Assembly (NCBI GenBank): GCA_964621305.1
Contig: CAZUOM010000002.1
Coordinates: forward strand, 73,733-137,732
Length of the DNA stretch: 64,000 bases
Origin: an uncultured Gammaproteobacteria bacterium
Lineage (GTDB): Bacteria; Patescibacteriota; Microgenomatia; UBA10105; UBA927
Direction of reading: 5' to 3'
A program made the position numbers and the translations under genes. Position 1 is the first letter of the stretch, and each line of letters opens with the position of its first letter. The notes below the pieces were generated by a model. The model did not search any database. It was not told where the DNA came from and was given only the letters and a program-made list of their open reading frames with translations. Positions 1 through 60,733 of the stretch are shown one piece after another.

Positions 1-997
1 CCTTCTGAATTTTTATGCCCGTATCCGGGAACAGAATAAGAGTTTTGAGACTTTTTCGTTTGGCAAGAAACCTTCCGAGACCGCTGTAGTCCAGCCTCCT
101 GTCAAATCCGCCGGCGATGAGCGTAGCGACGTCATCACCCAGCGCCTCAAGAGCATAGATGGTTGCCTCCGGGATAGTAGCAAGCGAGTCATTGTAAAAC
201 TTAATTCCCTTAAATTCTCCCACAAACTCCAGCCGGTGCGGGAGCGGTTTAAATTGTCCGATCGCCTGTTCTGTTAGTTTGCGACTCACTCCAAAAAATT
301 GGCCAACAGCAGTTGCGGCCGCAATGTTTTTATTGTCGCCATAAAATGCAACCTTGTTTCCCTTGCTGCTATTGGCAATTTTTGCTGACAGTTTGTTTGT
401 GCGGTCGTAAACAACAACGTCTTTTACCGTTTGGAATTTGACGATATTAGCTTTAGCAGCAACATACTGGTCAAAAGAAGAGTAATAATCCAGGTGTTCA
501 GGAAAAACATTGAGGACAACGGCAACATGGGGACTAAACTTAATATCGGCGAGTTGATGGCTAGATAGTTCTATGACGAATACCGTTTTTTGGGTCGCGG
601 CGCCTAGGTGGTCAAGCGCCGGGTTGCCGATGTTGCCGACGAGCCGCACATCGGCAAATTTCTGCTTGAGGATATCGGCAATAAGAGCTGATGTTGTACT
701 TTTTCCCTTGGTGCCAGTGACGCCGACGGTGACTCCCCGACACAGAGAAAAAAAGATGTTTACTGCTGTGGTGACAAATGGAGCGCGAACTTTTTCAGGT
801 GGAATTCCGGGGGTGCGCACGACGGTGTCATACAGCTGGAGATTATCTAAATAATTATCGCCGTCTTTTTTATCAGCGATACTTATAGACAGACTTGAAT
901 AGTTCTTGCGCAAAAACCGTTCCACGCTTTGGTTTTCTCGTCCGTAGCCAAGGAGAATTATTTTGTCCCCCCTAATTTCACTTGAGTAGTTTTTCAT
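1..997 (-). CDS. murD: UDP-N-acetylmuramoylalanine--D-glutamate ligase MurD (C-terminus runs off left window edge)
   Basis: Manual minus-strand translation from ATG (rc of cat 995-997): [25 protein letters not shown]...GVTGTKGKST (Mur-ligase P-loop)...PHRLEFV... Absent from the ORF track because the ORF runs past position 1. Start overlaps the stop of the upstream gene by about 20 nt. Confidence 0.8.
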   Translation of the reverse strand, partial: MKNYSSEIRGDKIILLGYGRENQSVERFLRKNYSSLSISIADKKDGDNYLDNLQLYDTVVRTPGIPPEKVRAPFVTTAVNIFFSLCRGVTVGVTGTKGKSTTSALIADILKQKFADVRLVGNIGNPALDHLGAATQKTVFVIELSSHQLADIKFSPHVAVVLNVFPEHLDYYSSFDQYVAAKANIVKFQTVKDVVVYDRTNKLSAKIANSSKGNKVAFYGDNKNIAAATAVGQFFGVSRKLTEQAIGQFKPLPHRLEFVGEFKGIKFYNDSLATIPEATIYALEALGDDVATLIAGGFDRRLDYSGLGRFLAKRKSLKTLILFPDTGIKIQK

Positions 998-2336
998 ATT
1001 CAGGCGGCAGAAAGTGATTTGTGTTCCAACCAGAAAGGGAATAATTTTCGCCGGCCAACATGGCGACTGCCGCTTGTGCCTCTTCCGGCGCCCCCACGCA
1101 TTCAAATGGCTTCTTGTCCCCTGCTCCGGCCAAATCTAAAAAATGTTGTTGTAGCTCTTTTTTTTCCAAAAAATTGCTGCCGAAAACCGATTTCATTTGA
1201 TAGTTCGAAAGAAATGGGGATAAAATGAGATACACAAAGGCGCACTTGGCGCAGGCTCCGCACCAGTCGCGGCCGCGGAGCTTGTTGCAACTTGCAAAAA
1301 CCGGGTGATATTTTGGCATTTTTGCAAAAATAGAGGCGACTTGGATCTCGGAAAGCGGACGAAGAAAACTGAAGTACTCGGGTTTTCTTAAGGTCTCCCC
1401 CTGCCATGCAGGGAGAGACCTTGTAAAATATTCCCTGAATTTTTTCTCAAACTCATAACTTTTGGAGTACTGGTGGTTGATGATTTTGCCCAGATATTCT
1501 ATGTTTCCCTCTGAAGCACTTGATTCATTTGAGGCAATGACATGTTGAAAACTGTGGAGCTTAGCAACCATTGAGCCGAGGAATGCAAGGTAGGCAGAAA
1601 ACGGCGTATGTCCGTTGAGATATCCTTGATGGTTAAGTTCAAGCAAAGCAGCATCAATTGTTCGCTTAACAATTATCGGATTTTCGTATCCTGCGACCTC
1701 GACAACCCTTATGGCAGCGGGAGTTGGGTTGAGAAGAAGAACGTTTTTTCGAGTCGGCATTTTTTTGAGAAGCTCAATGGTTACCACCGAGTCTTTGCCG
1801 CCACTGGCGAGGATGAGATCACCACGAGAAGCAGGGCTAGTAACACGAGCAGGGCTAGTAACACGAGAAACGCTGGAAATAGTAAGAAAGCCAGAACCGG
1901 TAAAGTCGATCGCGTTTTTGTAGAAAAATTCACCGAGGCCGTTTATGAATAAATCGTGCCACCAATCAATTTGTTCAGGGGTCAAACTCCCCGCTTTGAC
2001 AATCAACTCCGGCGGGCAGGCGGCTTTCCAGTAGCTGATTGCCTCTACCATGCCGAGGTTGAAAACCAACGGGTCGATAAGTGATCGATTGATTTCTCCC
2101 CTAACCGGAATTGTTATTTCCGGAGAAAATCGAATATCTGGTTCGAGAAGAAAATAGAATCGGACAACTAGTTTCTCGTTGGCTTCAGAAATCTCGTAGG
2201 ATTGGTAGACCAACCGAGGATGTTTAGCGCGCAATTTTTCGACATTCATCTTGCGTATTATACCATCGACCTCTATAATAGACGCATGCCGAAGCGAATA
2301 TATCAACCCAAAAAGAAAAAGCGAGCGCAAAAGCAC
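978..2336 (-). CDS. PP-loop (SGGKDS) ATP-pyrophosphatase family protein with C-terminal CxxC; candidate MurL-like UDP-MurNAc-L-Ala-L-Glu epimerase
   Basis: 452-aa [13 protein letters not shown]-loop motif and C-terminal CGACAKC. Lies immediately upstream of murD, is co-oriented with it and overlaps it. Contains an in-frame 18-bp tandem duplication ([13 protein letters not shown]) and a diverged palindromic insertion at 1389-1423. The functional assignment is inference. Confidence 0.55.
1389..1423. repeat. diverged copy of the in-frame palindromic element (AAGGTCTCCCCCTGC catg GCAGGGAGAGACCTT)
   Basis: 15-bp inverted repeat with 1 mismatch and a 4-nt loop, located inside the coding sequence. 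Encodes [11 protein letters not shown] on the minus strand, similar to the peptides encoded by the copies at 14415 and 60308. Confidence 0.6.
1831..1866. repeat. perfect 18-bp tandem duplication (GCAGGGCTAGTAACACGA x2) inside the PP-loop gene
   Basis: Read directly in the sequence. It is in frame and duplicates the hexapeptide (SRVTSP)ARVTSP just upstream of the SGGKDS motif. Confidence 0.9.
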
Positions 2337-5655: not shown

Positions 5656-6300
5656 ATGACGTTTCATCCAGACATACTGCACCCGAGACAACAACGCGTG
5701 TTGAGGAAACTGGCTGTTTTTCGCACGTTTGGGTATTACCTCGCGGGTGGGACCGCGCTGGCGTTGCAGCTTGGACACAGAACGTCATTGGATTTTGATT
5801 TTTACAGCAAGGAGAAACTTGAGCGTGAAACGTTCGCGGTTGGCCTCAAGCAATCGTTGTCAACGGTAAAAATATTGCGTCAAACCCATGATGCATTTCA
5901 GGCTGTTACCGAGGGCGTTAACGTGTCCGTGTTTTACTATCCGTATCAACTATTGCATGCGTTGGTTGATTTTCCACCCATTCAGCTTGCTAGCCTTGAG
6001 GATATTGCGGCCATGAAAATCGTGGCCCTCGTGCAAAGGGCTAGACAACGGGATTTTTGGGACGTCTATTATTTGGCAGAGCGCTTGGGAATAGCAAACG
6101 TAATAGCGTCTGCCTACAGGAAATACCCGTGGTATGAAGAGAACAACCAGATCATACTGCGCGCGCTCACCTATTTTGATGATGCGGACACCGATGACGA
6201 GGTCGGGAGAATAACAATTGTTGACAGAAATCTTCGATGGAAAGACGTGAAGGAGAAGATACGGCGTGCGGTGGAAGCATACCGTAAGGAGACAGCGTGA
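5656..6300 (+). CDS. nucleotidyltransferase AbiEii/AbiGii toxin family (DUF1814)
   Basis: YYLAGGTALALQLGHRTSLDFDFYS matches the GGTAL...R.S.D.DF signature of AbiEii. Confidence 0.7.
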   Translation: MTFHPDILHPRQQRVLRKLAVFRTFGYYLAGGTALALQLGHRTSLDFDFYSKEKLERETFAVGLKQSLSTVKILRQTHDAFQAVTEGVNVSVFYYPYQLLHALVDFPPIQLASLEDIAAMKIVALVQRARQRDFWDVYYLAERLGIANVIASAYRKYPWYEENNQIILRALTYFDDADTDDEVGRITIVDRNLRWKDVKEKIRRAVEAYRKETA

Positions 6301-13896: not shown

Positions 13897-13918
13897 AGGA
13901 TTATGCTATAGTGTAGGC

Positions 13919-14650
13919 ATGAACAGGAAGAAAACGCAACAGGTTATTGAGCTTCTTAAGAAAGAATATCCCAACGCAAAGATAGTCCTCAAGTTTAGTA
14001 ACCCGTGGGAACTTTTGGTAGCGGTGGTTTTATCAGCCCAATGCACAGACGCGGTAGTCAATAGGGTGACAGAGAAGCTTTTTGCCAAATACAAAACCCT
14101 TGATGGCTATCTAAAGGCAGACATAAAAACCTTCGAACAGGAGATAAGATCCACAGGCTTTTACCACAACAAAGCGAAAAATATTTTGGCCGCGGCAAAA
14201 CTCGTCAAGGAAAAATTTGGTGGCGAGGTGCCAAGCACGATGAGCGAGCTTTTGACGCTTCCCGGTGTGGCGAGAAAAACAGCAAACATCATTTTGGGCA
14301 ACGCGTTTAACATTATAGAGGGCATCGCTGTCGATACCCACGTGTCGCGCCTGAGCCAGCGCTTGCGGCTGGTTAATGTAGACACAATCGGCGGGAAGAA
14401 AGTTATTTTTTTCAAAAGGGGTCCCCTTGCAGCTTTGCAAGGGGACCCCTTGAAGAGAGAGATCGTAGATTATAAAAAGGACGCCGACCCGGTCAAAATA
14501 GAACGCGAGCTGATGGCGGTCGTGCCCAAACCAGATTGGTTCAAGCTCACGTATTTGTTGATCGATCACGGCCGGGCAATCTGCAAAGCCCAAAATCCCA
14601 ACTGCAGCGCCTGTGTCCTTAATAAACTTTGTCCGGCGTCACGGCTTTAA
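13919..14650 (+). CDS. nth: endonuclease III (Nth) carrying an in-frame ~36-aa insertion encoded by a palindromic element
   Basis: Start chosen at MNRKK (13919). LSAQCTD, LPGVARKTANIIL, VDTHVSRLSQRL and a C-terminal CKAQNPNCSACVLNKLCP 4Fe-4S loop. The insertion lies between the HhH-GPD core and the FeS loop and contains a 16-bp perfect inverted repeat. Confidence 0.85.
   Translation: MNRKKTQQVIELLKKEYPNAKIVLKFSNPWELLVAVVLSAQCTDAVVNRVTEKLFAKYKTLDGYLKADIKTFEQEIRSTGFYHNKAKNILAAAKLVKEKFGGEVPSTMSELLTLPGVARKTANIILGNAFNIIEGIAVDTHVSRLSQRLRLVNVDTIGGKKVIFFKRGPLAALQGDPLKREIVDYKKDADPVKIERELMAVVPKPDWFKLTYLLIDHGRAICKAQNPNCSACVLNKLCPASRL
14415..14454. repeat. palindromic in-frame element AAGGGGTCCCCTTGCA-gctt-TGCAAGGGGACCCCTT
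   Basis: Perfect 16-bp inverted repeat with a 4-nt loop inside the nth coding sequence. A near-identical copy lies in trpS at 60308-60350. Confidence 0.9.
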
Positions 14651-33673: not shown

Positions 33674-36079
33674 ATGCAACTTACCGGTATTCGTCAACAA
33701 GTATTTCTTGACCGATACGCCAAGAAGGATGAGGCGGGTAAGCCCATTGAGCAAACGCCTGAGGAAATGTGGCGAAGGGTTGCTCATGCCATTGCCCAGG
33801 TGGAGTCAAAAGCCAAGCGTGATGAGTGGGAAGAAAAATTTTACAACGCGATGCAGGACTTCGTTTTGGTTCCAGGCGGACGGATTCTTTCCGGGGCAGG
33901 AACCGGATACAAGGTGACGTTTTATAATTGCTTCGTAATTCCCAGCCCGCAGGATTCCCGTTCCGGCATCCTCAAAACGCTTGCCCAGATGGTGGAGATT
34001 ATGTCCCGCGGTGGGGGGGTAGGGATCAACCTCTCCAGTCTCCGTGGCAGGGGGACTCGGGTGAAGAAGGTCAACGGGTTTTCCTCCGGCCCCTGCAACT
34101 GGGCGGAGCTTTTTTCCGTAGCAACAAAGGACATCATCCAACAGGGTGGCAGTCGTAGGGGCGCCCTCATGCTTATGCTCTGGGACTGGCATCCGGATAT
34201 TGAAGAATTTATTACGGTCAAGCAGGACCTTTCTCGCATCAACGGCGCAAACCTATCCGTTTGCGTGTCTGACGCATTCATGGAGGCGGTCAAAAACGAT
34301 AGGGACTGGGAGTTGGTTTTCCCGGACATTGATGATCCGGAGTATGACGAAGAGTGGGATGGGTATTTGCCCAACTGGATAGCGCTTGGCAAAAAAGTTA
34401 TCGTCCACAAAACTGTCAAAGCACGTACTATTTGGGACATGATTGCTCAGGCGGCATGGAGAAGTGCCGAGCCAGGTGTCGTCTTTATGGAACGGTACAA
34501 CAAGTGGTCTAACAATTATTACTGGGAATATATCAACTGTGTTAATCCTTGCGGTGAAGAGGGGCTTCCGAACTACGGGGTCTGCAATCTTACCTCCATT
34601 AATCTTTCAGCGCTCGTAAATGATCAGGGGGAGATGAATTATGAAAAACTTGCTGAAATTGCAAAAATCGGCGTCCGGTTTCAGGATGATGTCGTTGACG
34701 GAGACTTCTATGTATTTCCGGAAATTAAAAAGCGCCAGGTCGAAGGGGAGCGCCGGATCGGTCTTGGAACCGTGGGATTAGGGGATGCGCTTATCAAAAT
34801 GAAACTCCGTTACGGCTCCAAAGAAAGCCTGCCGGTGATTGACAGAATTTACCGGACGGTTCGCGACGCAGCCTATGCGACATCTGTTGATTTGGCTCGC
34901 GAAAAAGGCCCTTTTCCGGCAATTGACAAGAAAAAACACCTGGAGGGGTATTTTGTGAAACAGTTGCCGGAGGAAATACGCGAGAAAATGAAGAAGTGGG
35001 GAGTGCGCAACTCTGTCATTCTCCAACAGGCACCAACAGGCACAACGTCTCTTCTTTCCGGGGTTTCCAGCGGGATTGAGCCTGTGTATGAGTTCGAGAT
35101 GATCCGACACGACCGGCTAGGCGAGCACATCCTTCGGCACCCACTTTATGAAGCGTGGCATGAGGAGTTTAAAAAAATTCATGGTCGGGAGCCTGCAAGA
35201 GAAAGCCGGCCGGCACATTTTGTTTCCGCAAACGACTTATCACCTGAAGACCATGTTTCCGTACAGGCAACCATTCAGAAATACGTGGATGCTTCAATCA
35301 GTAAAACCGTGAATGCCCCCAACAGTCATACGGTTGAGGATGTGAAAAAACTTTACACTCTGGCTTACGAGCTTGGGTGCAAAGGCATTACCTACATGCG
35401 CGAAGGGAGCCGCCCGGGAGTCCTTTCCCGGCCGGATGAAAAAAACGGAGTTTCGCCGAATGGACAGGTGGCGGTAAAAGTTGAAGGCCACTACGTGCCG
35501 GAAGTCAAACCTCGTCCAGTGGTCGTGCACGGTTCCACCTACCAGGTAGAAACGCCCGTAGGTCAAGCGTACGTGACGATCAATACCAATGGCGGCAACC
35601 AGCCGGTGGAGTTATTTGTTAATGTGGGCAAAGCAGGAAGTGACGTGACGGCGATGGCGGAGGCGCTGGGACGCTTAGCATCCCTCATGCTTAGGATTGC
35701 TTCGCCAATAACTCCCATGGACAGGGTGCATAAAATCGCCTCAGAATTGATTGGCATCGGCGGCGCCCGTTCCCTGGGGTTTGGTGAAAATCGGGTGCGG
35801 AGCTTGCCGGATGCAGTTGCCAAAGTGATAGACCGGCACTTTGGGTTTTTTAAAAAACAGGAGATTGGGACAACTCTACCAACAAATGGACAGAAAAACG
35901 GACGCGTGCAGCCCGTTGTTGAGCCGGCGGAAAAACCGTTTGATCCGCGGCCCCAACAGATGGTGGTTACCGAAAAACGGGTAGTGACGGTGGACTTGTG
36001 CCCCAACTGCGGGGAAGGAAGTTTGGTTTTTGAGGAATCCTGCAAAAAATGTTACTCGTGTGGATACTCCGAGTGCTAA
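33674..36079 (+). CDS. nrdJ: class II (adenosylcobalamin-dependent) ribonucleotide reductase
   Basis: 801 aa. GVCNLTSINLS active-site region and C-terminal CPNCGEGSLVFEESCKKCYSCGYSEC Zn ribbon. Context: NrdR and a PduO-type adenosyltransferase. Confidence 0.8.
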   Translation: MQLTGIRQQVFLDRYAKKDEAGKPIEQTPEEMWRRVAHAIAQVESKAKRDEWEEKFYNAMQDFVLVPGGRILSGAGTGYKVTFYNCFVIPSPQDSRSGILKTLAQMVEIMSRGGGVGINLSSLRGRGTRVKKVNGFSSGPCNWAELFSVATKDIIQQGGSRRGALMLMLWDWHPDIEEFITVKQDLSRINGANLSVCVSDAFMEAVKNDRDWELVFPDIDDPEYDEEWDGYLPNWIALGKKVIVHKTVKARTIWDMIAQAAWRSAEPGVVFMERYNKWSNNYYWEYINCVNPCGEEGLPNYGVCNLTSINLSALVNDQGEMNYEKLAEIAKIGVRFQDDVVDGDFYVFPEIKKRQVEGERRIGLGTVGLGDALIKMKLRYGSKESLPVIDRIYRTVRDAAYATSVDLAREKGPFPAIDKKKHLEGYFVKQLPEEIREKMKKWGVRNSVILQQAPTGTTSLLSGVSSGIEPVYEFEMIRHDRLGEHILRHPLYEAWHEEFKKIHGREPARESRPAHFVSANDLSPEDHVSVQATIQKYVDASISKTVNAPNSHTVEDVKKLYTLAYELGCKGITYMREGSRPGVLSRPDEKNGVSPNGQVAVKVEGHYVPEVKPRPVVVHGSTYQVETPVGQAYVTINTNGGNQPVELFVNVGKAGSDVTAMAEALGRLASLMLRIASPITPMDRVHKIASELIGIGGARSLGFGENRVRSLPDAVAKVIDRHFGFFKKQEIGTTLPTNGQKNGRVQPVVEPAEKPFDPRPQQMVVTEKRVVTVDLCPNCGEGSLVFEESCKKCYSCGYSEC

Positions 36080-36169: not shown

Positions 36170-36709
36170 ATGTCGATCTACACCCGTACCGGTGACGACG
36201 GAACGACCGCGCTTTTTGGCGGAAAGAGGGTCTTAAAATGCGAAGATCTCGTGGATGCCTATGGTTCTTTAGATGAGCTCAATTCGTGGGTTGGATTCAT
36301 CGCCTCGCAGAGTAAAGAACAGAGCGAGAAAAAATTTCTTCAAACAATACAATCAGACCTTTTTACCATTGGGAGTACGCTGGCCGGATGGAAGGGGGAT
36401 ATAACACAACTGGGCAAACGCGTTATAGAAATGGAACAATGGATCGACCGGATGGAAAAAGTCCTGCCAGAACTTACGAACTTTATTCTTCCCGGCGGGT
36501 CAACCAACGGAGCACGAGTTCATTTGGCGCGAAGCGTTTGCCGGCGGGTTGAACGAAAAATTGTTGCGTTGAAGAAAAAACAAGAGGTTGATCTATCTAT
36601 TATTGAATATCTTAACCGTTTTTCGGACTTGCTATTTACTCTGGCGCGAATTATAAATAAGGACGCAAACGTACCAGAAATAATTTGGAATAGTAGAAAA
36701 AAAGCTTGA
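36170..36709 (+). CDS. PduO-type ATP:cob(I)alamin adenosyltransferase
   Basis: MSIYTRTGDDGTTALFGGKRVLKCEDLVDAYGSLDELNSWVG is the PduO-family N-terminus. Confidence 0.85.
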   Translation: MSIYTRTGDDGTTALFGGKRVLKCEDLVDAYGSLDELNSWVGFIASQSKEQSEKKFLQTIQSDLFTIGSTLAGWKGDITQLGKRVIEMEQWIDRMEKVLPELTNFILPGGSTNGARVHLARSVCRRVERKIVALKKKQEVDLSIIEYLNRFSDLLFTLARIINKDANVPEIIWNSRKKA

Positions 36710-36877
36710 TTGGGGGAATCGTGGTGCAATCCCACGGCTGTGCCGCAACTGTATAGCCAGACTACCCAATCACGCGTCATCCCAGCATCACCAGAATGTG
36801 CTGGGTAAACCTTCGAGCAAAGGGCAGTTTTTATACGCGCCTTCTCGCTCGAGGAGGTTTTTTGATGGGAAATAGAT

Positions 36878-38728
36878 ATGGGTAAATTTAATAAGGAAGT
36901 TTTTAGGATATCCTACGAGGTTTTGAAAAAAAAAGTTGTTGCGGCAAACCCCGACTTTTCCGAGCACGACATTAACATCGAAACGGCTCAGCGGTTCCGC
37001 CCGCGGTTTTTCCTTGACATGGCAACTGTTCGCCACGAAGATCGGGGGACAAAAAAATACGCCGTTGGCGACATAGAGCTTTTATCTACCGGAGACATTT
37101 ACTATAGGCAATATGGCGTAACCTTAGAAGAACTTAATGAAAATACTCGATTATATAATCCAAACGCTTACTTAGTAACTGACCATCAAGCCTCACGGCT
37201 GGCGGCACAAAGGTTACACGCAGGAGCTTCAATCGTAGCTTTTGCTTCCGCTAGGAAAGGCAGCGATAACCGGGATATTCAGGTTCTCACAATTGATCCG
37301 GTAACAAAAAAAGGAATATCCATAACCATAAACGCCGCCTCAGACGGAGGGCTTCATACGTTTTCAGAAATGCAGAGAGTGATTCAAAACTTATTTCCAG
37401 AGCTCACTCAAGTTCAACCTCAAGAGAATGTAAGCATTTTTACTGATAGACCAACTTCTGTTGAAAGAGCTCGCCAGATTGTTTCAAGAGTCAATTTTAG
37501 CCAGCAGCTGCGGACAGGAAAAGTAGTTAGGGAAAACAATCATGATATGCAGAAAAGGACTAATGATTTTAGAGCGTTTAGGTCACAAGACGACAAAAAG
37601 TTAACAGTCGTGAAAACAGAGACAAAAATAGCAAATGACCGACGCCGAGCGATACGTGACATTTTTGTCTATCGTCAAAAAGGCTGGATAGAGTTACAAC
37701 CGAATCAATCGATAAACCGAGGTTATGAAAAAATAAAACATATTATTATTGATGCAAACCAAAGGCGTTACACCGACATGAAAAAAACGGCTCTTACGCT
37801 TTGGTTTGCAGGTAAAACTCAGGTTGCCATTGGTGCTGTTCCACTGTTGGTTGCCTCTTTGGCAAAAGAAATACCCCAGCCGCTGCGAGCGGTTGAAAAA
37901 AGCATTGCGCGGCATCAAAAGAAAGAGGCAAAAAGGCTCTATAAAGAAAAAAAGAAGATTAGGGAACGACAAAAAAGGCATGCTCAAGAGAGCATTGAGA
38001 GAGGTAGAAAGATGGATATTGAAGATAAACTGAGAAGGCGCGAACCGAAACAAAAAAGAAAAAAGTCACAAAAAGAACGCACCGTTTTTTCTAAAGAAAC
38101 GCAGCGAAAAAAGAAAAAAGATAAGCCATTTCAATTCAAGGAGCAACGGGAGAAGAAACAAACGAAATATGTAGAAAGGTCAAAGATGAAAAAGGGAAAA
38201 GAAAGGTTTGTTAAAAAAGAAAAAAGGCTTACCAAGAATACGGAAAAAATGAAGAGGGGCGTTGTTAAGATGTGCACAGAAAAGGCATTAATACGAGCCC
38301 TTACTTTATGGGCAAAAAAATTGAAACAGAAGCGAGAAGAAGGCGAGAGCAGGGCAATTAGAACGGTATCAAAAAAAATAGAGGAATTGTTACGGTCACC
38401 AACTCTTTCCAAAAAAGCTGGGAAAGAACAAATCCCCACTGTAGGTTTTTCTTTTGCCTGGATTTTATGGCTTTTATTTGAACCATCGAGAAGAAGGCGG
38501 CTACGCCCAAAAGTAGGTAGGGCTGACAACTTAGGAAAGACAGAAATTATTCCAGAGGGGATAATAACTCAAGAGCAGAGACAGTGGCTGCTTTTGTGTA
38601 TCATTTGGTATTTGACTATGATACAGGAGACGGGATTAGGAAACAAAAAAAATTACAAACATGCTGGACATCATTTGCCCAAGCCTTTTGCCCAAACAGG
38701 CGTAATTTTTGCGTATCAATCGTGGTAG
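36878..38728 (+). CDS. hypothetical 616-aa protein with ~350-aa N-terminal domain and a long K/R/E-rich low-complexity segment
   Basis: No recognised motif. First gene of a three-gene cluster ending in a VirD4/TraG-like ATPase. Confidence 0.6.
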   Translation: MGKFNKEVFRISYEVLKKKVVAANPDFSEHDINIETAQRFRPRFFLDMATVRHEDRGTKKYAVGDIELLSTGDIYYRQYGVTLEELNENTRLYNPNAYLVTDHQASRLAAQRLHAGASIVAFASARKGSDNRDIQVLTIDPVTKKGISITINAASDGGLHTFSEMQRVIQNLFPELTQVQPQENVSIFTDRPTSVERARQIVSRVNFSQQLRTGKVVRENNHDMQKRTNDFRAFRSQDDKKLTVVKTETKIANDRRRAIRDIFVYRQKGWIELQPNQSINRGYEKIKHIIIDANQRRYTDMKKTALTLWFAGKTQVAIGAVPLLVASLAKEIPQPLRAVEKSIARHQKKEAKRLYKEKKKIRERQKRHAQESIERGRKMDIEDKLRRREPKQKRKKSQKERTVFSKETQRKKKKDKPFQFKEQREKKQTKYVERSKMKKGKERFVKKEKRLTKNTEKMKRGVVKMCTEKALIRALTLWAKKLKQKREEGESRAIRTVSKKIEELLRSPTLSKKAGKEQIPTVGFSFAWILWLLFEPSRRRRLRPKVGRADNLGKTEIIPEGIITQEQRQWLLLCIIWYLTMIQETGLGNKKNYKHAGHHLPKPFAQTGVIFAYQSW

Positions 38729-38737: not shown

Positions 38738-39178
38738 ATGTATACGTCTGCCCGATCTTCTTCGGACGATCAAACAGTAAGCTTGCCACAACAGTCGGTT
38801 TCTGGGGGTGGAGTGGCAATTGGTAAAGAGGTTGAGGTGGTAGGAGTTAGTAGGGTAGAAGCGGCTGCCATCAAAGAGATCGGACGAGAGATTGAGTTGC
38901 CGCCAAATGTCACAAACGCCGGTGTTCAAGTGCGCCCAACAACAGTGCAGATTCCCAAGCCAGTTGCCCAGATGGGAGTAAAACCAGCTGGCCAAACAGT
39001 TATGCCGCCTGCTGTTTCGGTTTCCTTACCGCTTTCCGATGAGCAGATTGCTAAGGGGATGCACCAGGGCATCACAAGTTCCTGGCGCTGGCTTGCCGAG
39101 TGGTGCCGCCGACGGCTCAAACAGGCCCACATTGTGCTCAAAACTTTTCATGGGAAGATTGCGCGGGTGAAATCATGA
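38738..39178 (+). CDS. hypothetical 146-aa protein
   Basis: ORF with ATGA coupling to the downstream ATPase gene. Confidence 0.5.
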   Translation: MYTSARSSSDDQTVSLPQQSVSGGGVAIGKEVEVVGVSRVEAAAIKEIGREIELPPNVTNAGVQVRPTTVQIPKPVAQMGVKPAGQTVMPPAVSVSLPLSDEQIAKGMHQGITSSWRWLAEWCRRRLKQAHIVLKTFHGKIARVKS

Positions 39179-41523
39179 ACGACCAATTTTTAGATCTTAT
39201 CTATAGACTTGAGGTTTTTGGTATAAGCCTACTGCTTATGATCCTCTTCATTGTTGGGTTTATTGTCTTGGGCTATATGTTATTTCTTGCTTGGAAATAT
39301 CGTAATCGAGAACAACACAGCTTGGACACTGTGCTCTTGCAGGTGGCAGTTCCCAGAGACAATGAGATAAAAATTGACGCGGCAGAGCAGATGTTTGCTA
39401 GCCTCCATAGTCTGTATCACGATGATAAATTGGCATTTCTTAAACCTCAAGAACATCTTTCTTTTGAGATTGTTGCAAAGCGGGAGGACGTCCGTTTTTA
39501 TGTGGCCATTCCCAAAAAACATAAAGATTTAGTTGAAAAACAGATCCATGGGTCTTATCCTGGAGCCGACGTCCGTGAGGTCGAAGAATACAATATCTTT
39601 TCAGAAAATGGTAAGGTAGCCTTTGCGGCTCTCCGGCTAAAAAACGCAAATTTTTGCCCAATTCGTATCTACAAAGATTTGCCGGTTGATCCATTATCCA
39701 CAATCACGTCAGTGCTTGCTAAAATGGGGGAGGGGGAGGGAGCAGCCATTCAAGTTCTGGTTCAACCAACCGGCGGAAAATGGAGAAGACAAGGTAGAGG
39801 ATATATTGCTCACGTTAAAAAAATCGAAGCAAACCCAGAAAAAGCGAGCTTTAAAGTTGACCAAAAAACGCTAGAAGCAATCGAACACAAAATTAGCAAA
39901 TCCGGTTACCACGTGGTCGTGCGGCTTGTAGTTTCTTCAACGAGCGAAGAGGGAGCCAAGCATCATCTGGAAAATCTCATTACTGCATTCGGACAGTTTG
40001 TCAGCGACCAGAACCATTTTTTCAAAGTCAAATTTCCCATTAAAAAACTGTTCATGGTGGATTTTGTTTACCGCTACTTTCCATATATTAACCCGCCAAT
40101 TTTTTCCCAATACAGCGTTCTTAACAGCGATGAGTTGGCAACCATTTATCATTTCCCCAACAAGTCTATTGAAACACCCCACATATTTTGGCTTAATGCG
40201 AAACGCGCTCCAGCTCCCATGCAAATTCCCCAGTCGGGATTGTTTTTAGGCATTTCTCGTTACCGGGGGGTTGACCGGTCGATTTATATAAGCGATGAAG
40301 ATCGAAGGCGCCACATGTATGTGATTGGGAAAACCGGGACTGGCAAATCGCAATTACTTGAGGAGATGATCATGCAGGACATTAAAAATGGAAAAGGCCT
40401 GGCGGTTGTAGATCCTCATGGAGATCTTATTGACGGGATTATGTCGAGGATGCCGCCGGATCGGGCAGAGGACATTATTTATTTTGACCCGGCCGATGAA
40501 GAACGGCCTATGGGACTCAACATGTTGGAAGCAAAAACCGAGCAGCAGAAACATTTCGTAGCAACAGCTATTGTAGGCCTCATGTATAAACTTTATGATC
40601 CGCAAAAGACCGGCATAATTGGTCCCCGATTTGAACACGCTATCCGAAATGCGATGCTTACGGTTATGTGCGAGCCGGGCAACACGTTTGTGGAAATCGT
40701 ACGGGTTTTGACTGACAGTGCATTCGTCCAAGAGTTATTGCCCAAAGTGCAGGATCCGATTATCCGTCGATATTGGACCGATCAAATAGCGCAAACGGCA
40801 GACTTTCATAAATCCGAGGTCCTTGACTACATCGTATCCAAGTTCGGTCGGTTCGTTACCAACAAGCTTATGCGCAACATCATCGGTCAGTCTGTTTCCA
40901 GCTTTGATATGCGAAAAGTAATGGATGAGGGAAAAATTCTTTTAGTGAATCTATCGAAAGGAAAAATGGGAGAGGAAAATAGTAATTTTTTGGGGCTTAT
41001 TCTCGTACCTCGCATCTTGATTTCCGCTATGAGCAGACAAGAGATCCCCGAGGATCAACGGCGGGATTTTTACCTCTATGTTGATGAGTTCCAAAATTTT
41101 GCGACTCCTGACTTTGCTCAGATACTCTCCGAAGCTCGTAAATACCGGCTCAATTTGGTTGTTGCCAATCAATTTATTGGGCAAATGGAGGAGGAGGTCA
41201 AAAATGCCATTTTTGGTAACGTAGGGACCGTGACAGCCTTTCGCGTTGGGGTAACGGATGCTAATTATCTTCAGCACGAGTATCAACCGACGTTTAATGA
41301 GACCGACCTCATCAATATTGAAAAATATAATGCCTATATTAAGACAACTGTCCATAACGAACCAGTGAAACCATTTAGTATAGATTTGACTAAGGACATG
41401 AAAAAGGTCACTGCCGAGCGAAATTCACAAATCGGCAAAGCGATTGTGGAACTATCCCGCCTCAAATACGGTCGGAGCAAAGAGTTGGTGGAAGCAGAAA
41501 TTGCGCAACGGGCACGCCTCTGA
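39176..41523 (+). CDS. VirD4/TraG/TraD-like type IV coupling-protein-family ATPase with two N-terminal TM helices
   Basis: Start MNDQFLD at 39176. TM region FGISLLLMILFIVGFIVLGYMLFLAW. Walker A VIGKTGTGKSQLL, Walker B LYVDEFQNF, and a TraG-D_C-like ARKYRLNLVVANQ segment. Confidence 0.7.
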
Positions 41524-45348: not shown

Positions 45349-46215
45349 CTAGAGCTCCTCGAGTTTTACTCTCTCTGCTGGCTGGCCCTTGATGAACTCG
45401 AGGTATTTTTCCGTCGTCGAGAGGCGCTTGTGGCCGACGAGTTTACTTAGGGTGGTGATTGGCGTTCCCGCCATCAGGTGGTGGGCGATGAATGTGTGAC
45501 GGAGGTCGTTAACCTTGGCATCCTCAATGCCTGCCACTTTGAAATATCGGTCTATAGCGGTCCGGATATTACGGATAAGAAGAGGCTTGCCGGTTTTGGT
45601 AATAAAGAGTGCTTTACTCTTGATATTATCGCCGCGTATTATGACATAACGAGCGATTGCGTCCTTGGCTGCTTTGTTTAGCGGGATGCTTCGTTCCGCA
45701 TGCCCCTCTTGCGCGGCGATGTGGAGCTGGTTGTCTTTGATATCTTCAGTTGCCAAGTTAGCTAGTTCGCCGATACGTATACCGGTTTGCAAAAACAGCT
45801 CGACGATGGCATAAGTACGAATGTCTCCGCGGCAGGCATCACGAAGCGCCCGGTATTCCAGTTTGGACAAAATGCGGGGCGGCTTGATCTCATACTTGGG
45901 ATGCTCAATTTCTCTAGCCGGATCTACAGCGATAGCACCGCCTGACTTGAGGAACCGGAAAAAAGTTTTGATCGAGTTGATTTTGCGAGAAATGGACTTG
46001 GCCTTGTAATTGTCGCTTCCTAGTTTTTTGATGAATGCCTCTAATTCGTCCAGTGATACATCTAGTACAGCTTTTACCCCCATATTCTCGAGGAATGAGA
46101 CTAACTGTTCAATATCTTTGTGATATGCTACGATTGTGGCTTTGGCACGGCGGCGGCTACCGAGGTAGTCGGTAAATTGGGCATGTGCGGCTCGAAGGTC
46201 GGGTGTAGTAGCCAT
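45349..46215 (-). CDS. tyrosine site-specific recombinase (XerC/XerD-like)
   Basis: 288 aa. N-terminal core-binding domain and catalytic region with R...HxxR...Y (DLRHTFIAHHLMAGTPITTLSKLVGHKRLSTTEKYLEF). Confidence 0.85.
   Translation of the reverse strand: MATTPDLRAAHAQFTDYLGSRRRAKATIVAYHKDIEQLVSFLENMGVKAVLDVSLDELEAFIKKLGSDNYKAKSISRKINSIKTFFRFLKSGGAIAVDPAREIEHPKYEIKPPRILSKLEYRALRDACRGDIRTYAIVELFLQTGIRIGELANLATEDIKDNQLHIAAQEGHAERSIPLNKAAKDAIARYVIIRGDNIKSKALFITKTGKPLLIRNIRTAIDRYFKVAGIEDAKVNDLRHTFIAHHLMAGTPITTLSKLVGHKRLSTTEKYLEFIKGQPAERVKLEEL
45362..45396. repeat. right copy of the direct repeat, lying in the 3' coding end of the recombinase gene
   Basis: See 44598-44632. Confidence 0.85.
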
Positions 46216-49176: not shown

Positions 49177-50973
49177 TTGATGAGAATCAAACCAACGGTT
49201 GATCCTGTGGTTGGACCAACTGATGATACACACTGGGGACAGGTTCTTATTCTCCCAAATGCCTATGGTGTTATTGAGGTTTTTGATCTCGATGGAGCTG
49301 CGCGCGATATCGGACTTCGTCTCTTGAGTACTCTTTCCGATCAGCTGGCTGAGCCAGTCGTAAGCCTTATAGACGTTGAAACGTGTGTTCAGCGGGTGGT
49401 CGATCCCAAACTGACAAGCCTCATCGTTCTTGTGCCTGTAGGAGTGGTGGCGTATCTAGTCTGTAAAGATAGCGGCGCCGTATATTTGAAGCGCGATGGA
49501 AGGATCGCAAGATTGTTAGCTAATACAGGATCAGTTTCCGGAAAGCTTGTTGTTGGAGATACATTACTTGTTATGACAAAGCGATTTGTAGAAACCATAG
49601 GGGAAGCAGAGATCGCATTAATATTTGATCACGAAGACCCAAAGACCATCTCTGAGAAACTGACAGTACAACTATCAAGATCAGAAAGCGCGGCTGGTGC
49701 TGCTGGTTTGGTTTTCGGTGTTAGGAGTCTCATGCCCATGGAGGGCGAAGAGAGCGTATCAATGGTACCAAAAAAAGCGCTAGCGGGACGCGTCGGGCGC
49801 ATGATCCACAAGACAATGCCAAAAGCAACTCACTTTTGGCATACTGTGCGTGATCGAGCGCGAAGGAAAAACAGTGCGATTTTAGCCATTGCAATTTTTT
49901 CTTTCATACTCTTTATTGGGAGTGTACTATTGGGTGTGAAAAAACAGCTGAGGTTAAGGGTCGACACGCAGATCGTTGGAGCAATGATTGAAGCTCAGCA
50001 TGCATTCAATGAAGGGGTGGCACTTTTAGATCTTAACTCCGTAAAGGGCAGAGAGCGACTGAGTCAAGCAAAGAGGATTCTGGATCCCTTGGCTGCCACG
50101 GTTTCTGCAAAAACAAAAACCGGCAGGCACATCGTGGCGCTTTCGAAGGAAGTTGATAGTCGGCTGAGTCTGGCCATGCAGGTTCATCGTGGAGAGCCTC
50201 AGTTATTTTATGATACTGGGCTTCTTAAAAAGGGTGCCGTCGCATCCTCGGTTGCCCTTGTATCAGAGCGCATGGCGTTGCTGGATGCCAGCGGAAAAAC
50301 TGTGTTTTTTCTTAACTTGGTATCAAAAAACGGTCAAATCGTCGCTGGCGGTGAACAGTTTTCCGGTTCCCGTTTCGTCGCCATGCAAGGAGACAAGGTT
50401 TATGTGCTCGTTGCCGATGGCATTCATATGATCCGTACAGAAGACAAAAAGACCGAGCCGCTCATTGTCAAAAGAGACAGCGAGTGGGGCAGCATTGCTG
50501 ACCTTGTCGCTTATGGAGGCAATCTCTATCTTCTCGACCTTGCCCGCGGCCGGATCTGGAAATATGTGTCAACCGGAGCAGGTTTCAGCGAGCGCCGCGA
50601 ATACTTAAATCCCGATACTCTTCCAGATTTTACTTGGGCGACTACCATGGTTATTGACGGATCGGTGTGGCTGGGAACCAACGAGGGCAAAATCCTACGA
50701 TTTACCCAGGGACAGGAACAGACGTTTTTGCCCAAAGGGGTTGCGCCGCCCCTTGGCAGAGATCTTGCCGTCTATACAAGCGACGAGGCATCGCGTGTCT
50801 ACATTTTAGACCGAGAGAATAAGCGGGTGGTTATGCTTGAAAAAGACGGCACGTATCTGTCTCAATACGTTTGGGAAGGCGCTATCAAACCAACACAATT
50901 TGTTGTTTCTGAAATCCTCAAAACTATTTTTCTCCTTTACGATGGTAAAGTTTACAACCTGGAGCTCAAATGA
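49177..50973 (+). CDS. hypothetical 598-aa membrane protein (central TM; C-terminal repeat-rich, possibly beta-propeller-like extracytoplasmic domain)
   Basis: Long ORF, TM helix SAILAIAIFSFILFIGSVLLGV, repeated G..YLLD/GS.WLGT motifs. Confidence 0.55.
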   Translation: MMRIKPTVDPVVGPTDDTHWGQVLILPNAYGVIEVFDLDGAARDIGLRLLSTLSDQLAEPVVSLIDVETCVQRVVDPKLTSLIVLVPVGVVAYLVCKDSGAVYLKRDGRIARLLANTGSVSGKLVVGDTLLVMTKRFVETIGEAEIALIFDHEDPKTISEKLTVQLSRSESAAGAAGLVFGVRSLMPMEGEESVSMVPKKALAGRVGRMIHKTMPKATHFWHTVRDRARRKNSAILAIAIFSFILFIGSVLLGVKKQLRLRVDTQIVGAMIEAQHAFNEGVALLDLNSVKGRERLSQAKRILDPLAATVSAKTKTGRHIVALSKEVDSRLSLAMQVHRGEPQLFYDTGLLKKGAVASSVALVSERMALLDASGKTVFFLNLVSKNGQIVAGGEQFSGSRFVAMQGDKVYVLVADGIHMIRTEDKKTEPLIVKRDSEWGSIADLVAYGGNLYLLDLARGRIWKYVSTGAGFSERREYLNPDTLPDFTWATTMVIDGSVWLGTNEGKILRFTQGQEQTFLPKGVAPPLGRDLAVYTSDEASRVYILDRENKRVVMLEKDGTYLSQYVWEGAIKPTQFVVSEILKTIFLLYDGKVYNLELK

Positions 50974-51413
50974 CCATCATTAACCGCCGCGCCACACATG
51001 ACTACACTATTCTTGACCGCTTCGAGGCGGGGATCCATCTCGTGGGCGCTGAAGTAAAATCTCTTAAAGGCGGCCATGCGTCACTTGACGGTGCGTTTGT
51101 CCGGCTGATTGGTTCTGAAGCATACCTGGTCAACGCTCAAATTTTTCCATACATTTACGCGCGTCCTGAGGGCTACGACCCAAAGCGCACCAGAAAACTT
51201 CTCCTTCATAAAAAAGAAATCATGAGCTTGAGAGGAAAAATTGAAGGAGCAAATTTGACTCTCGTCCCCCTTTCTTGGTATACTAGAGGGCCCTTAGTCA
51301 AGCTCGAAGTTGGCCTAGCCCGCGGCAAGAAGCAGTTCGAAAAACGCGAAGCAAAGCGTCATGCCGACATTAAGCGAGAGCTGGAGCAGGATTATCGGGG
51401 GAAAGTAAAGTAA
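50970..51413 (+). CDS. smpB: SsrA-binding protein SmpB
   Basis: INRRATHDYTILDRFEAGIHLVGAEVKSLK is a classic SmpB sequence. Confidence 0.9.
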   Translation: MTIINRRATHDYTILDRFEAGIHLVGAEVKSLKGGHASLDGAFVRLIGSEAYLVNAQIFPYIYARPEGYDPKRTRKLLLHKKEIMSLRGKIEGANLTLVPLSWYTRGPLVKLEVGLARGKKQFEKREAKRHADIKRELEQDYRGKVK

Positions 51414-51418
51414 ATTTT

Positions 51419-51811
51419 GGGGATGAGTGATTCGACGGGGAGAGCACGTTAAAAACTGCAAGCCGGCGATGACAAAAGAGCCGTAAAAATTTGTCAAATC
51501 TAACTGCTAATATTATTAGCGAGGAAGACGAGCAAGCGCTTCTTGCGTTAGCTCTCTCCCGACGTCAAGCACGATTGGCTTTTGCCTATCAAGCGTAAAC
51601 GTCCATCTCTAAAGTTGTTTTCTCGGTGACTCTCTTGAGGTGTAAAAACAGCCGAGGCGTCAGGAGTCAATTGACCGATTGATTCCGGAGTAAAAGGTCA
51701 AACCATTGTACGGTTTTTGTCCGTTTTTATCGTATAATGTATCAAACGGACTACGCTTGTAGATGTTTAGATGTGCTCCTTCGGACCCGGGTTCATTACC
51801 CGGCATCTCCA
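51419..51811 (+). ncRNA. ssrA: tmRNA (ssrA)
   Basis: 5' GGGGATGAGTGATTCGACGGGG (canonical GGGG.UG...GAUUCGACGGGG). 3' tRNA-like end GGACCCGGGTTCATTACCCGGCATCTCC-A with acceptor pairing GGGGATG/CATCTCC including the G3-U70 Ala identity pair. About 393 nt, immediately downstream of smpB. GCT resume codon at nt 88. Confidence 0.85.
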
Positions 51812-51813
51812 CA

Positions 51814-52437: not shown

Positions 52438-52452
52438 TATAATAGAGGGAAA

Positions 52453-52539
52453 GGAGGGTTGGCTGAGCGGTCCAAAGCGAAAGGTTGCTAACCTTTTGAG
52501 CCGAATAAGCTCGCACAGGTTCAAATCCTGTACCCTCCG
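52453..52539 (+). tRNA. tRNA-Ser (anticodon GCU)
   Basis: Type II cloverleaf: acceptor GGAGGGT/ACCCTCC, anticodon stem AAAGG/CCTTT, loop ttGCTaa, long variable arm, T-arm ACAGG-TTCAAAT-CCTGT. No CCA is encoded. Confidence 0.8.
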
Positions 52540-52617
52540 CAGAACAATTTTCTACAAAAATTTTCTGCGTAAACGCCCTTTTGGGTTTACCCGGAAAATT
52601 TTTCTGAAATTTGTTCC

Positions 52618-55018: not shown

Positions 55019-55021
55019 TAC

Positions 55022-55378: not shown

Positions 55379-55423
55379 CCAAATATGCTTGCACTGAGGA
55401 TCTGCCAGCCGGCGGAGGCCAAG

Positions 55424-59284: not shown

Positions 59285-60733
59285 ATGAAACGATTTATTT
59301 CTGGTATTACGCCGAGCGGGGATGGGAGTTTACATATTGGCAATTATTTGGGTGCCGTGCGGCAGTTTATTGATCTTGCTCGATCAAATGAGACGTATCT
59401 CATGGTTGCAGACCTTCACGGCTTGACGACGATCCAGGATAAACAGCAGTTGATTCATAACATCGAAACATTGGTCCTCAATGAATTGGCACTCCTGCGC
59501 GGGTTTATGACAGCGAAAGAATTTAGCAAAATTGTCTTTTTTCGCCAATCTGATGTACTCATGCACGCCGAGTGCCAGTCGATTCTCAACAACGTCACCC
59601 CTCTGGGGTTACTTAAGCGCGCGCACGCGTACAAAGATAAGCTTGGTAAGGATACAGTGAAGGACGACATCAACGTTGGCCTCTTTTCCTATCCGATGCT
59701 CATGGCTGCAGACATACTCCTCTACCAGCCGGATCTAGTGCCGGTTGGTAAAGATCAAAAGCAACACATAGAAATAACGCGTGATATCGCCGATCGGTTC
59801 AACAAAATTTTTCGAGCAAAAGTCTTTAAACTTCCTGAGCCGTATATTCCAGAGGAAGTTGCTGTGGTATTGGGGACAGACGGGAAGCGCAAGATGAGTA
59901 AATCCCTCGGAAACATTATTGCTATGTTTGAGCCGGAAGAGGTCATCAAAAAACAGGTGATGGAAACCTACACGGATCCGGCCCGAGCTCACGCCACCGA
60001 TCCAGGGCACGTAGAAGGGAATATGGTGTTTGCATATCTGGATTTTTTCGGAGAACCGCGTAGCGTTGCGAAACTAAAAGAAAAATACCGTCGCGGAACC
60101 GTCGCGGACGTAGAGGTGAAAGAGTATTTGTTTAAAACTTTAATTGAGTATTTTGCTCCAGCCCGCAAAGCATATGAGCAGTTAAAGGCTAATCCAGTAA
60201 TGGTCAAAAAAATTCTTGCCGACGGAGCCCAAAAGGCCAGTGCGGTTGCCAGTCAAACCATGATGGCGGTGCGAGAGGCGATAGGGTTGACGAACAAGTA
60301 CTCAATAAGGGGTCCCCTTGCGGGGCCATCTTTGCAAGGGGACCCCTTGCAAAAAACGATTAGTATCGATGAATTTGCGCGGGTGGAGGAACGGGTGGGG
60401 AAGGTAATCGAGGCGACGAATGTCGAAGGGAGCGAGAAGCTCATTCGATTGGTGGTTGATTTTGGCCCCGCCTTCGCTGAAGCTACGGCGGGCGAGGGAA
60501 AGCGGATTATTTTCACCGGCGTGCGGGGATTTGGTTATACGCCGGAAGATTTTCTCAACAAACAATTTTTGTTTGTCACCAATCTTGCGCCGAGAAAGAT
60601 GCCCTCCTACGTTGAAACTCCGGCGGGTAAAATGGGGGAAGAATCACAAGGCATGATTTTAGCCGTAGACGGACCTGGTAAACCAATCTTTGTTTCCGCC
60701 GAAGAAATGCCATTGGGAGCAAAAGTCAGATAA
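59285..60733 (+). CDS. trpS: tryptophan--tRNA ligase fused to a C-terminal EMAP/Trbp111-like tRNA-binding domain, with in-frame palindromic insertion in the linker
   Basis: Start MKRFISGITPSG..HIGNYLGAV (HIGH-type) and KMSKS. C-terminal ~110 aa VGKVIEATNVEGSEKLIRLVVDFG... is the OB tRNA-binding domain. Confidence 0.85.
   Translation: MKRFISGITPSGDGSLHIGNYLGAVRQFIDLARSNETYLMVADLHGLTTIQDKQQLIHNIETLVLNELALLRGFMTAKEFSKIVFFRQSDVLMHAECQSILNNVTPLGLLKRAHAYKDKLGKDTVKDDINVGLFSYPMLMAADILLYQPDLVPVGKDQKQHIEITRDIADRFNKIFRAKVFKLPEPYIPEEVAVVLGTDGKRKMSKSLGNIIAMFEPEEVIKKQVMETYTDPARAHATDPGHVEGNMVFAYLDFFGEPRSVAKLKEKYRRGTVADVEVKEYLFKTLIEYFAPARKAYEQLKANPVMVKKILADGAQKASAVASQTMMAVREAIGLTNKYSIRGPLAGPSLQGDPLQKTISIDEFARVEERVGKVIEATNVEGSEKLIRLVVDFGPAFAEATAGEGKRIIFTGVRGFGYTPEDFLNKQFLFVTNLAPRKMPSYVETPAGKMGEESQGMILAVDGPGKPIFVSAEEMPLGAKVR
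60308..60350. repeat. palindromic in-frame element AAGGGGTCCCCTTGC-ggggccatcttt-GCAAGGGGACCCCTT inside trpS
   Basis: Arms identical to the nth copy. Encodes IRGPLAGPSLQGDPLQ. Confidence 0.9.

Follow-up and report, generated by a model that had tools for sequence, protein, structure and literature searches.

How does a near-perfect palindrome come to lie inside the reading frame of a protein-coding gene? The question is raised by a 64,000-nucleotide stretch of metagenomic DNA (contig CAZUOM010000002.1, positions 73,733 to 137,732; hereafter the window), in which a gene for a MurL-like PP-loop protein contains a GC-rich hairpin of 33 nt. An initial annotation, made from the letters of the window, took this hairpin for the diverged, old and decaying third copy of an element that also occurs elsewhere in the window. 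Our analysis indicated that the MurL palindrome very probably belongs to a dispersed family of repeats, comparable to repetitive extragenic palindromes (REPs) and Rickettsia palindromic elements (RPEs), and that it was inserted in frame and is translated with its host gene.

We used a repeat finder to delimit the palindrome. Two arms of 15 nt, pairing at 14 of 15 positions (93%) and spaced by 3 nt, were identified, and the + strand at 1390-1422 reads AAGGTCTCCCCCTGC-CAT-GCAGGGAGAGACCTT. The 15-bp arms and the single mismatch of the initial annotation were thus confirmed; its loop of 4 nt (catg) counted one G twice, so that the element is 33 nt long and not 34, and its range of 1386-1425 encloses the palindrome without marking its true limits. 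The sole mismatch places T opposite G on the gene strand. In 30 first-order Markov simulations, the mean count of hairpins with stems of 15 bp or more and no more than one mismatch was 0.03 per window, and five were observed. The sense strand, folded as single-stranded DNA, had a free energy of -15.4 kcal/mol (z = -5.6), which none of 200 shuffled sequences equalled. The simulations and the shuffles rule out a chance palindrome; the MurL palindrome is genuine. Among the 12 window hairpins with stems of at least 12 bp, just three were GC-rich (61-64%, vs 46% for the window). All three start with AAGG, finish with CCTT, lie in coding sequence and share one codon phase, xxA-AGG, in which the first A of the arm closes a codon and AGG forms the next. 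More degraded copies (up to three mismatches in 15, or lone arms) were sought in the window, and none was found besides these three. They are solitary and 13-46 kb apart, which excluded a CRISPR-like or tandem array.

The host gene product matched the NCBIfam model MurL (NF041275) with E = 4e-73; its 246 bits fall short of the equivalog cut-off (700). All its homologues bear the Pfam domains MurL_N and MurL_epimerase_C (PF26298, PF26299). These matches support membership in the MurL family, and the enzyme activity is a prediction. Exact matches to the MurL product, from either start, and to Nth (P0121) were sought, and none was found. On the minus strand, the palindrome falls within the codons ACA AGG TCT CTC CCT GCA TGG CAG GGG GAG ACC TTA, which contribute 12 residues to the open reading frame (ORF). 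We then compared the site with 22 homologues. The segment from FREY to YFSFLRP is 17 residues long in the window protein, 4 (ENPN) in P0001, 5 in P0002, 7 in P0004 and about 10 (xxKYLTxxxx) in the others. P0001, the nearest homologue (73-75% identical), has no insert: it reads FREY-EN-PNYF, and P0002 reads FRDY-SKE-PTYF. At the DNA level, the empty sites are TAT GAA AAT CCA AAT TAC (L002) and TAC TCT AAA GAA CCG ACG TAT (L003/L004), and the window has 39 extra nucleotides, consisting of tttac, the 33-nt palindrome and one base more, with limits uncertain by a few nucleotides owing to ambiguous alignment. The view of the initial annotation that the element is an insertion in a PP-loop gene was therefore borne out: the gene is MurL-like, and the inserted residues are absent from the nearest orthologues, which also lack the palindrome. 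The conservation without a palindrome that the initial annotation had named as refuting an insertion was thus not seen. A conserved protein motif was ruled out by the absence of the residues and by copies of the repeat in recJ genes of other genomes, which read the left half in another frame (QGLSL vs RSLPA); the shared feature is thus the DNA and not the peptide.

An AlphaFold2 model built on the MurL alignment was of high overall confidence, with a mean predicted local distance difference test score (pLDDT) of 90.8. In this model, the insert forms the end of a helix (residues 265-278) and then a loop (279-290) whose pLDDT drops below 50 at positions 283-286, as would be expected for a tolerated surface insertion in a permissive MurL loop. 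The other low-confidence segment of the model (residues 132-135) corresponds to a perfect 18-bp tandem duplication at 1831-1866 (gcagggctagtaacacga x2), which encodes 12 residues in a variable linker. The coordinates of the MurL element, its host gene and its sister copies are listed in Table 1.

Table 1. Positions of the MurL palindrome, its surroundings and the two other copies in the window
Feature	Positions	Strand	Description
MurL-like PP-loop gene (UDP-MurNAc-L-Ala-L-Glu epimerase family)	978..2249 (ATG start) or 978..2336 (GTG start)	(-)	Host gene
Mur-ligase gene, MurD2-like	1-1105	(-)	Mur_ligase_M; adjoins and follows the MurL gene
In-frame insertion, 39 nt	1389..1427	(-)	Codons F275-L287 (13 residues), relative to the nearest MurL orthologues
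45-nt unit	1383..1427	(-)	tttac + palindrome + aagaaaa on the gene strand; flanks equal those of the L100 recJ copy
Arm 1	1390..1404	(-)	+ strand AAGGTCTCCCCCTGC; gene strand, 3' arm GCAGGGGGAGACCTT
Loop, 3 nt	1405..1407	(-)	CAT on the + strand, ATG on the gene strand
Arm 2	1408..1422	(-)	+ strand GCAGGGAGAGACCTT; gene strand, 5' arm AAGGTCTCTCCCTGC
Copy A	14416..14451	(+)	AAGGGGTCCCCTTGCA-gctt-TGCAAGGGGACCCCTT; in endonuclease III (nth, 13916-14650); peptide RGPLAALQGDPL
Copy B	60307..60348	(+)	Arms of copy A, 12-nt loop; in trpS (59285-60733); peptide RGPLAGPSLQGDPL

The two sister copies occupy comparable places. Copy A lies inside a 36-residue expansion of what is a 3-residue loop in the solved Bacillus EndoIII structure, and copy B is in a TrpRS linker that joins the core of the enzyme, ending near residue 342, to the C-terminal tRNA-binding domain. 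A fourth copy was found about 6 kb past the window end on L142 (GCA_005239695.1, SBBN01000005.1), a contig 100% identical to window positions 49285-64000. This copy (L142:19642-19681; AAGGGGTGGCCTTGC-aaagagagct-GCAAGGGCACCCCTT, one mismatch) belongs to a GT4 glycosyltransferase gene, where it has another codon phase, and its arms are yet another variant. All four copies, three in the 64-kb window and one beyond it, are thus intragenic, and the other arms of the fourth indicate that arm diversity within one genome is normal for the family. In addition, an imperfect 20-bp inverted repeat (GCCCTTGCAAGCCGTCTACG / CGTGGATGATTTGCAAGGGC) was noticed in the intergenic sequence at 58385-58429. It contains the core CCCTTGCAAG / TTGCAAGGG of the family arms and had no Rfam match; it may be a remnant or a relative of the family.

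We next considered whether the MurL copy, hereafter copy C, could have arisen from the nth/trpS element by mutation in place, as the initial annotation had proposed. Twelve of its 15 arm positions match copies A and B, one arm position is mismatched, and half-elements do exist in the family. At the remaining 3 of 15 positions copy C departs from the A/B arms, every time with compensation in the opposite arm, which random decay would not yield. Arms of the copy C type (AAGGTCTCYCC; AAGGTCTCYCCYTGC/GCARGGRGAGACCTT) also recur in unrelated genes of other genomes. In tsaD of L075, the element AAGGTCTCTCCCTGC-cgc-GCAGGGGGAGACCTT has the arms of the MurL copy on the gene strand, T-G mismatch included; L069, from the same metagenome-assembled genome (MAG), is a T variant with the same mismatch; and a perfect T variant is present in L054, L082 and L100. 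The recJ copy of L122 is of the same subfamily. The search patterns permitted a mismatch at that position only, which contributes to its recurrence. A further 24 loci with such arms came from a separate scan of metagenome contigs. None of the copy-C-type loci aligned with the window at the DNA level, indicating that they are not from the same organism. What is firmly indicated is therefore the subfamily, and not a special meaning of the 30/30 arm identity with L075. The flanks that the MurL copy shares with the L100 recJ copy suggest a unit of about 45 nt. We assign copy C on its arm sequence to a TCTCY subfamily and not to a degraded form of the GGTCC subfamily of nth and trpS. The nearest MurL orthologue, without the insert, gives no sign of age, and perfect copies of the family can be old, as described below for trpS. 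An old copy of the nth/trpS element that decayed where it stands is accordingly very unlikely, and we do not retain this part of the initial annotation.

To survey the family, one genome per bacterial or archaeal species was scanned with the pattern AAGGNNNCYCCNTGC-N(0-20)-GCANGGRGNNNCCTT, which leaves three free positions per arm. The scan gave at least 110 matches in at least 109 loci. Among the matches listed, the free triplets were perfectly complementary in 102 of 110, with a chance of 1/64 for each, and the low-GC loci alone used 27 different triplets. This covariation strongly indicates a real stem. Family members consist of a first arm AAGG-N5-CCTT (or CCCT)-GC, a loop of 0-18 nt and a second arm GC-AAGG (or AGGG)-N5'-CCTT, giving elements of about 30-48 nt. 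Most matches come from Patescibacteria; about half of those listed carry that label (Gottesman-, Shapiro-, Collier-, Davies- and Saccharibacteria, Paceibacterota and others), and a further group is labelled 'uncultured Gammaproteobacteria'. High-GC matches, in Streptomyces and similar genomes, are probably unrelated hairpins caught by the pattern.

The label of the second group was examined by synteny. The CAYNJY01 MAG (L006, L141) shares with the window the order rnpA-yidD-yidC-khpB-wzy-...-L25-TPR-nth, and the Nth protein of L141 is 74% identical to that of the window. Its gammaproteobacterial label appears to be wrong, and the MAG to be a relative of the Gottesmanbacteria-like window. The other third-party 'uncultured Gammaproteobacteria' MAGs (L005, L018, L020, L038, L054, L069, L075, L082 and others) are probably mislabelled too.

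Two kinds of location were found for the copies. Some occupy very short spacers directly 3' of a gene or between genes of the same direction, the position classical for REPs; others are deep in long ORFs, flanked on either side by more than 100 codons. The deep intragenic copies lie in lepA (L006), ComEC-like genes (L034, L065), a large membrane protein gene (L045), an Xaa-Pro peptidase gene (L054), tsaD (L075), recJ (L082, L100, L122), tsaC/tsaE (L108) and others, and the reading frame was open across every one examined. The same subfamily thus occurs in unrelated genes of unrelated genomes, and the family is both intergenic and intragenic.

These results bear on a local explanation of the MurL palindrome, namely a template-switching or fold-back error in a mutable loop, unrelated to any other copy. 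The length of the MurL loop does vary across the family, and the tandem duplication at 1831-1866 in the same gene is a case of local slippage. The arms, however, are not derivable from empty-site MurL DNA (TAT GAA AAT CCA; TAC TCT AAA GAA CCG), and the AAGG/CCTT ends, the inner GC clamp, the arm length, the phase and the flanks are common to unrelated genes and genomes. Because these features match copies in unrelated genes, and template switching would not recreate a family consensus, we regard such an error as scarcely credible.

The codon phase of the insertions was then analysed. Phase xxA-AGG was found in 3/3 window copies and in 15/21 deep intragenic copies elsewhere; with orthologous sites collapsed, it accounted for 17/22 (binomial p ~3e-5, the reference rate being 1/3). 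It encodes R-x-x-L/P-A ... Q-G-x-x-L, and of the three phases it alone gives no Cys codon from the conserved TGC/GCA. Selection against surface cysteines is a possible cause of the bias. The initial annotation had described copy C as having the phase and peptide type of the other copies, 'as expected for a palindrome'. Phase and peptide type are indeed common to the MurL, nth and trpS copies; the expectation was incorrect, since palindromy makes the strand irrelevant but leaves the phase unset.

Orthologous copies gave information on age. In the recJ orthologues of L082, L100 and L122, the element is at the same codon and the flanking DNA is 69-79% identical. All 30 arm bases (30/30) are identical in the three genes, and 0-3 of the 4 loop bases agree. 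Were the arms to change as fast as the flanks, such identity would have a probability of 2e-5 to 9e-4. The trpS element of the window is common to the orthologue L144, with 29/30 identical arm bases, 39/42 over the whole element and flanks that are 71% identical. The arms thus evolve more slowly than the coding DNA around them. Since orthologous elements are intact despite diverged flanks, perfect copies need not be young, and a single mismatch is uninformative on age. Decay by deletion was also seen: Nth of L141 keeps AAGGGGCCCCCTGCA and no second arm, P0139 and P0152 have half-length peptides, and several orthologues are empty.

The same loops are occupied by different elements. In Gottesmanbacteria Nth proteins (65-75% identical), one loop bears varied peptides or none. 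It contains RGPLAALQGDPL in the window and RGDLAELQGH in L138, where the DNA is AAGGGGTGACCTTGCA-gaat-TGCAAGGTCACCCCTT, with two compensated pair changes relative to the window. L139 and L140 have RPGLGGHQRPGL and RPGLPGLRPGL, respectively, encoded with identical arms (AAGGCCAGGCCTT/AAGGCCTGGCCTT) and different loops, and RGGLAIPQGHPL and others are further variants. A like variety of different yet intact palindromes was found in the trpS linker, in the ComEC-like gene (L034 vs L065) and in MurL. The MurL element of P0003 (L001), AAGGCCCGGCCTTTTG-gctt-CAAAAGGCCGGGCCTT, has quite different arms from that of the window and is at the same codon position and in the same phase. In a neighbour-joining tree of MurL, ((P0003,P0004),(P0002,(P0001,window))), only the window and P0003 have the element. 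Parsimony favours two gains at this site over one gain and three losses; against two gains, palindromes delete easily, and the empty sites (4-7 residues) are shorter than the family norm of 10 residues. The occupied loops are either rare survivable sites that were hit repeatedly or the places of an ancient insertion that was continually reshaped, which could proceed by compensatory change or by conversion to the dominant subfamily of the genome.

The conserved arms and recurrent loops raise the alternative that the palindrome is not a selfish repeat but a selected nucleic-acid structure: an mRNA hairpin, a DNA cruciform or a protein-binding site. Its role might be ribosome pausing at loops and linkers, mRNA processing or stability, or the binding of a nucleoid or topology factor, as with REPs and bacterial interspersed mosaic elements in E. 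coli. Arms conserved well above their flanks while loops vary, compensated arm differences at the same orthologous nth site (window vs L138) and the repeated occupation of the same loops and linkers in many orthologues are all consistent with it. The sense-strand flanks, T-rich 5' and A-rich 3', are the reverse of a terminator, and a selected function would explain retention inside genes where intergenic space is nearly nil. On the other hand, many orthologues lack the element at each site, gene conversion would give the same conservation pattern, and there was neither an Rfam match nor a called terminator. Mismatches of the G-U-compatible orientation showed no sense-strand preference either; T-G and C-A orientations were about equal (~4 vs 4), which does not support a pairing requirement purely at the mRNA level. 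We consider such a structure rather unlikely as a replacement for the repeat explanation, with which it partly overlaps, since an element may originate by spread and be retained by function. In its broadest form, this alternative makes the AAGG-N5-CCTT hairpins a selectively maintained, Patescibacteria-specific structural signal written into coding sequence, acting as a cruciform or protein site or as a translation-pacing mRNA hairpin, kept by compensation or directed repair and recurring at permissive loops. This proposal is unlikely as well; in a more remote variant, some copies would be taken out of the RNA or skipped by the ribosome.

Known classes of elements were compared with the palindrome. 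None of the three window palindromes matched Rfam 15 at the gathering score. An intrinsic terminator was excluded: whichever strand is read, T-rich sequence comes before the stem and A-rich sequence after it, and the terminator scan called nothing at 1390-1422. Searches for a terminator or promoter at the MurL palindrome gave nothing meaningful. Miniature inverted-repeat transposable elements have terminal inverted repeats, target-site duplications and typical lengths of 50-500 bp. They were also excluded, as the element is a single hairpin of 33-45 nt with no flanking direct repeat.

REPs form GTAG- and CGTC-tagged superfamilies with the tag at one end of the stem, and the CGTC REPs have no dedicated transposase (PMC3733652). 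The same study describes intragenic REPs in Opitutus terrae, Rickettsia conorii (RPE-4/6) and Xanthomonas, in repair genes and tRNA synthetases among others, and different REPs at about the same site of orthologous recB genes of Xanthomonas (PMC3733652). Like REPs, which are GC-rich imperfect palindromes of 20-40 nt forming a stable stem-loop, the element is short (33 nt) and GC-rich. REPs are dispersed in many copies per genome, mostly outside genes and 3' of them; at other Patescibacteria loci some copies of the present family do lie in tight spacers just 3' of genes. Like intragenic REPs, copies are in frame and tolerated in loops or linkers, here in nth, recJ and trpS. Unlike REPs, the family has AAGG-N5-CCYT-GC arms and Patescibacteria hosts, and its window copies are 3/3 intragenic. 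REPs are associated with a REP-associated tyrosine transposase (RAYT); none was detected among about 75 ORFs of the 64-kb window. No GTAG or CGTC tag was present beside the stem in 24 intragenic copies, whose flanks include tttac, ttcat, ttgc and ccac on the 5' side and aagaaa, gcaaaa and gaaaaa on the 3' side.

RPEs, reported by Ogata et al. in 2000/2002, are palindromic repeats that lie in frame within essential genes of a genome that has undergone reduction. Translation turns them into additional surface peptides, which are compatible with function and retained across species; RPE-1 is 100-150 bp long. The MurL element resembles RPEs, especially RPE-4 and RPE-6, in being an in-frame insertion in a functional ORF that is absent from P0001 and P0002 and lies in a surface loop (pLDDT <50). 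It differs in its length of 33-45 nt, compared with 100-150 bp for RPE-1, in its bacterial lineage and in the occurrence of different arm variants in the same loop. The likeness is one of placement and kind, and homology is not expected in a Gottesmanbacteria-like host.

GC-rich palindromes in coding genes of compact, AT-leaning genomes are also known from mitochondria, as GC clusters, coding palindromes and byps. Ribosomes skip the byp elements of yeast, for which an in-frame position is not required; the deep intragenic copies studied here differ in keeping the frame open. The coding palindromes of Nematomorpha mitochondria reach 284 bp (PMC6649704), and the Patescibacteria elements are far shorter. 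In the literature searched, no prior description was found for the Candidate Phyla Radiation/Patescibacteria; subscription-only papers may hold one. The kind of element, an intragenic REP or RPE, is already known; the arm architecture, the absence of a tag, the host lineage and the degree of recurrent loop occupation are different here.

Transposition of IS200/IS605 elements and by RAYT acts on a short imperfect hairpin of single-stranded DNA, without terminal inverted repeats and without target-site duplications. On the explanation that we prefer, a repeat of the REP/RPE kind inserted in frame, a 39-nt unit would have entered a permissive MurL surface loop and been translated as about 13 extra residues. 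The element would spread at the DNA level, most likely moving as a single-stranded hairpin with the help of a trans-acting enzyme encoded outside the window. This route is tentative, and we think it possible but doubtful: the likeness to IS200/IS605 and RAYT is a mechanistic analogy only, and neither a Y1 transposase among the window ORFs scanned nor a conserved cleavage tetranucleotide at the element was found. In compact genomes, the surviving copies would be limited to spacers and to in-frame insertions in loops and linkers, in the Cys-free phase. After insertion, either selection acting on the hairpin or gene conversion between copies would keep the stem from decaying as neutral DNA does.

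Several points weigh against this explanation. Translation of the 39 nt is assumed from the intact frame. The near-identical assemblies L142 and L143 are 100% identical to the window and offer no contrast between presence and absence. No target-site duplication and no conserved flanking tetranucleotide were seen, and Pfam scans of about 75 window ORFs detected no Y1/RAYT or DDE transposase; the recombinase of the window is XerC/D-like (45349-46215). Given the constraints of the family, the 30/30 identity with L075 is only moderately significant, with a chance of about 0.1 of one such match among the 110 listed. Finally, arm conservation above the flank rate fits a selected function at least equally well as a selfish element.

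In-frame palindromic repeats in essential genes are best known from Rickettsia and a few REP-rich bacteria. Patescibacteria show the same phenomenon with a different repeat architecture, and their thousands of MAGs are natural replicates. With different, still perfect, arm variants in the same loops of nth, trpS, murL, recJ and a ComEC-like gene across lineages, and with the slowly evolving arms, the choice between a selfish element and a selected structure becomes testable by comparative genomics alone. The inserts also matter for annotation. They add 10-15 residues to conserved enzymes and break domain-model matches, as with the HhH-GPD model of Nth here, and the recurrent peptides (RGPLA...QGDPL, RPGL...RPGL) could be mistaken for protein features.

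Other repeats were encountered in the same genomes. A second, sequence-unrelated in-frame repeat encodes the peptide VILASESSSASRI in two unrelated proteins of the Gottesmanbacteria MAG JACQHE01 (L035, L100), and 'RRESS/SSASS'-like peptides occur in other host proteins (also L045, L065). These peptides suggest that several repeat families invade the coding sequence of these genomes. Other GC-rich palindromes that do not follow the AAGG...CCTT pattern (CACCCCGGGGGTG...CACCCCCGGGGTG; CACCTCCGAGGTG...CACCTCGGAGGTG) were found in the same Patescibacteria contigs (L001, L034, L045, L059, L073, L085).

The window contains further features of note. An Rfam group I intron match (62 bits, E = 2e-13) lies at 55582-55828 (+), near a tRNA at 55424-55495 (-) and a perfect 17-bp palindrome at 55922-55956. 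In the gene calls of L142, a GIY-YIG ORF and, standing free, a tRNA_bind ORF follow about 1 kb downstream. An AdoCbl-II riboswitch (36704-36775) is located between a cobalamin adenosyltransferase gene (36170-36709) and a 616-residue ORF (36878-38728) without a Pfam match, downstream of NrdR and a ribonucleotide reductase with a TSCPD domain (33674-36079). Genes of the toxin-antitoxin or defence type are dense, including HicA/HicB (2420-2879), AbiEii (5656-6300), at least six PIN-domain genes, two Fic genes, MazE and Gp49/HTH, and a TrwB/VirD4-like coupling protein is encoded at 39100-41523.

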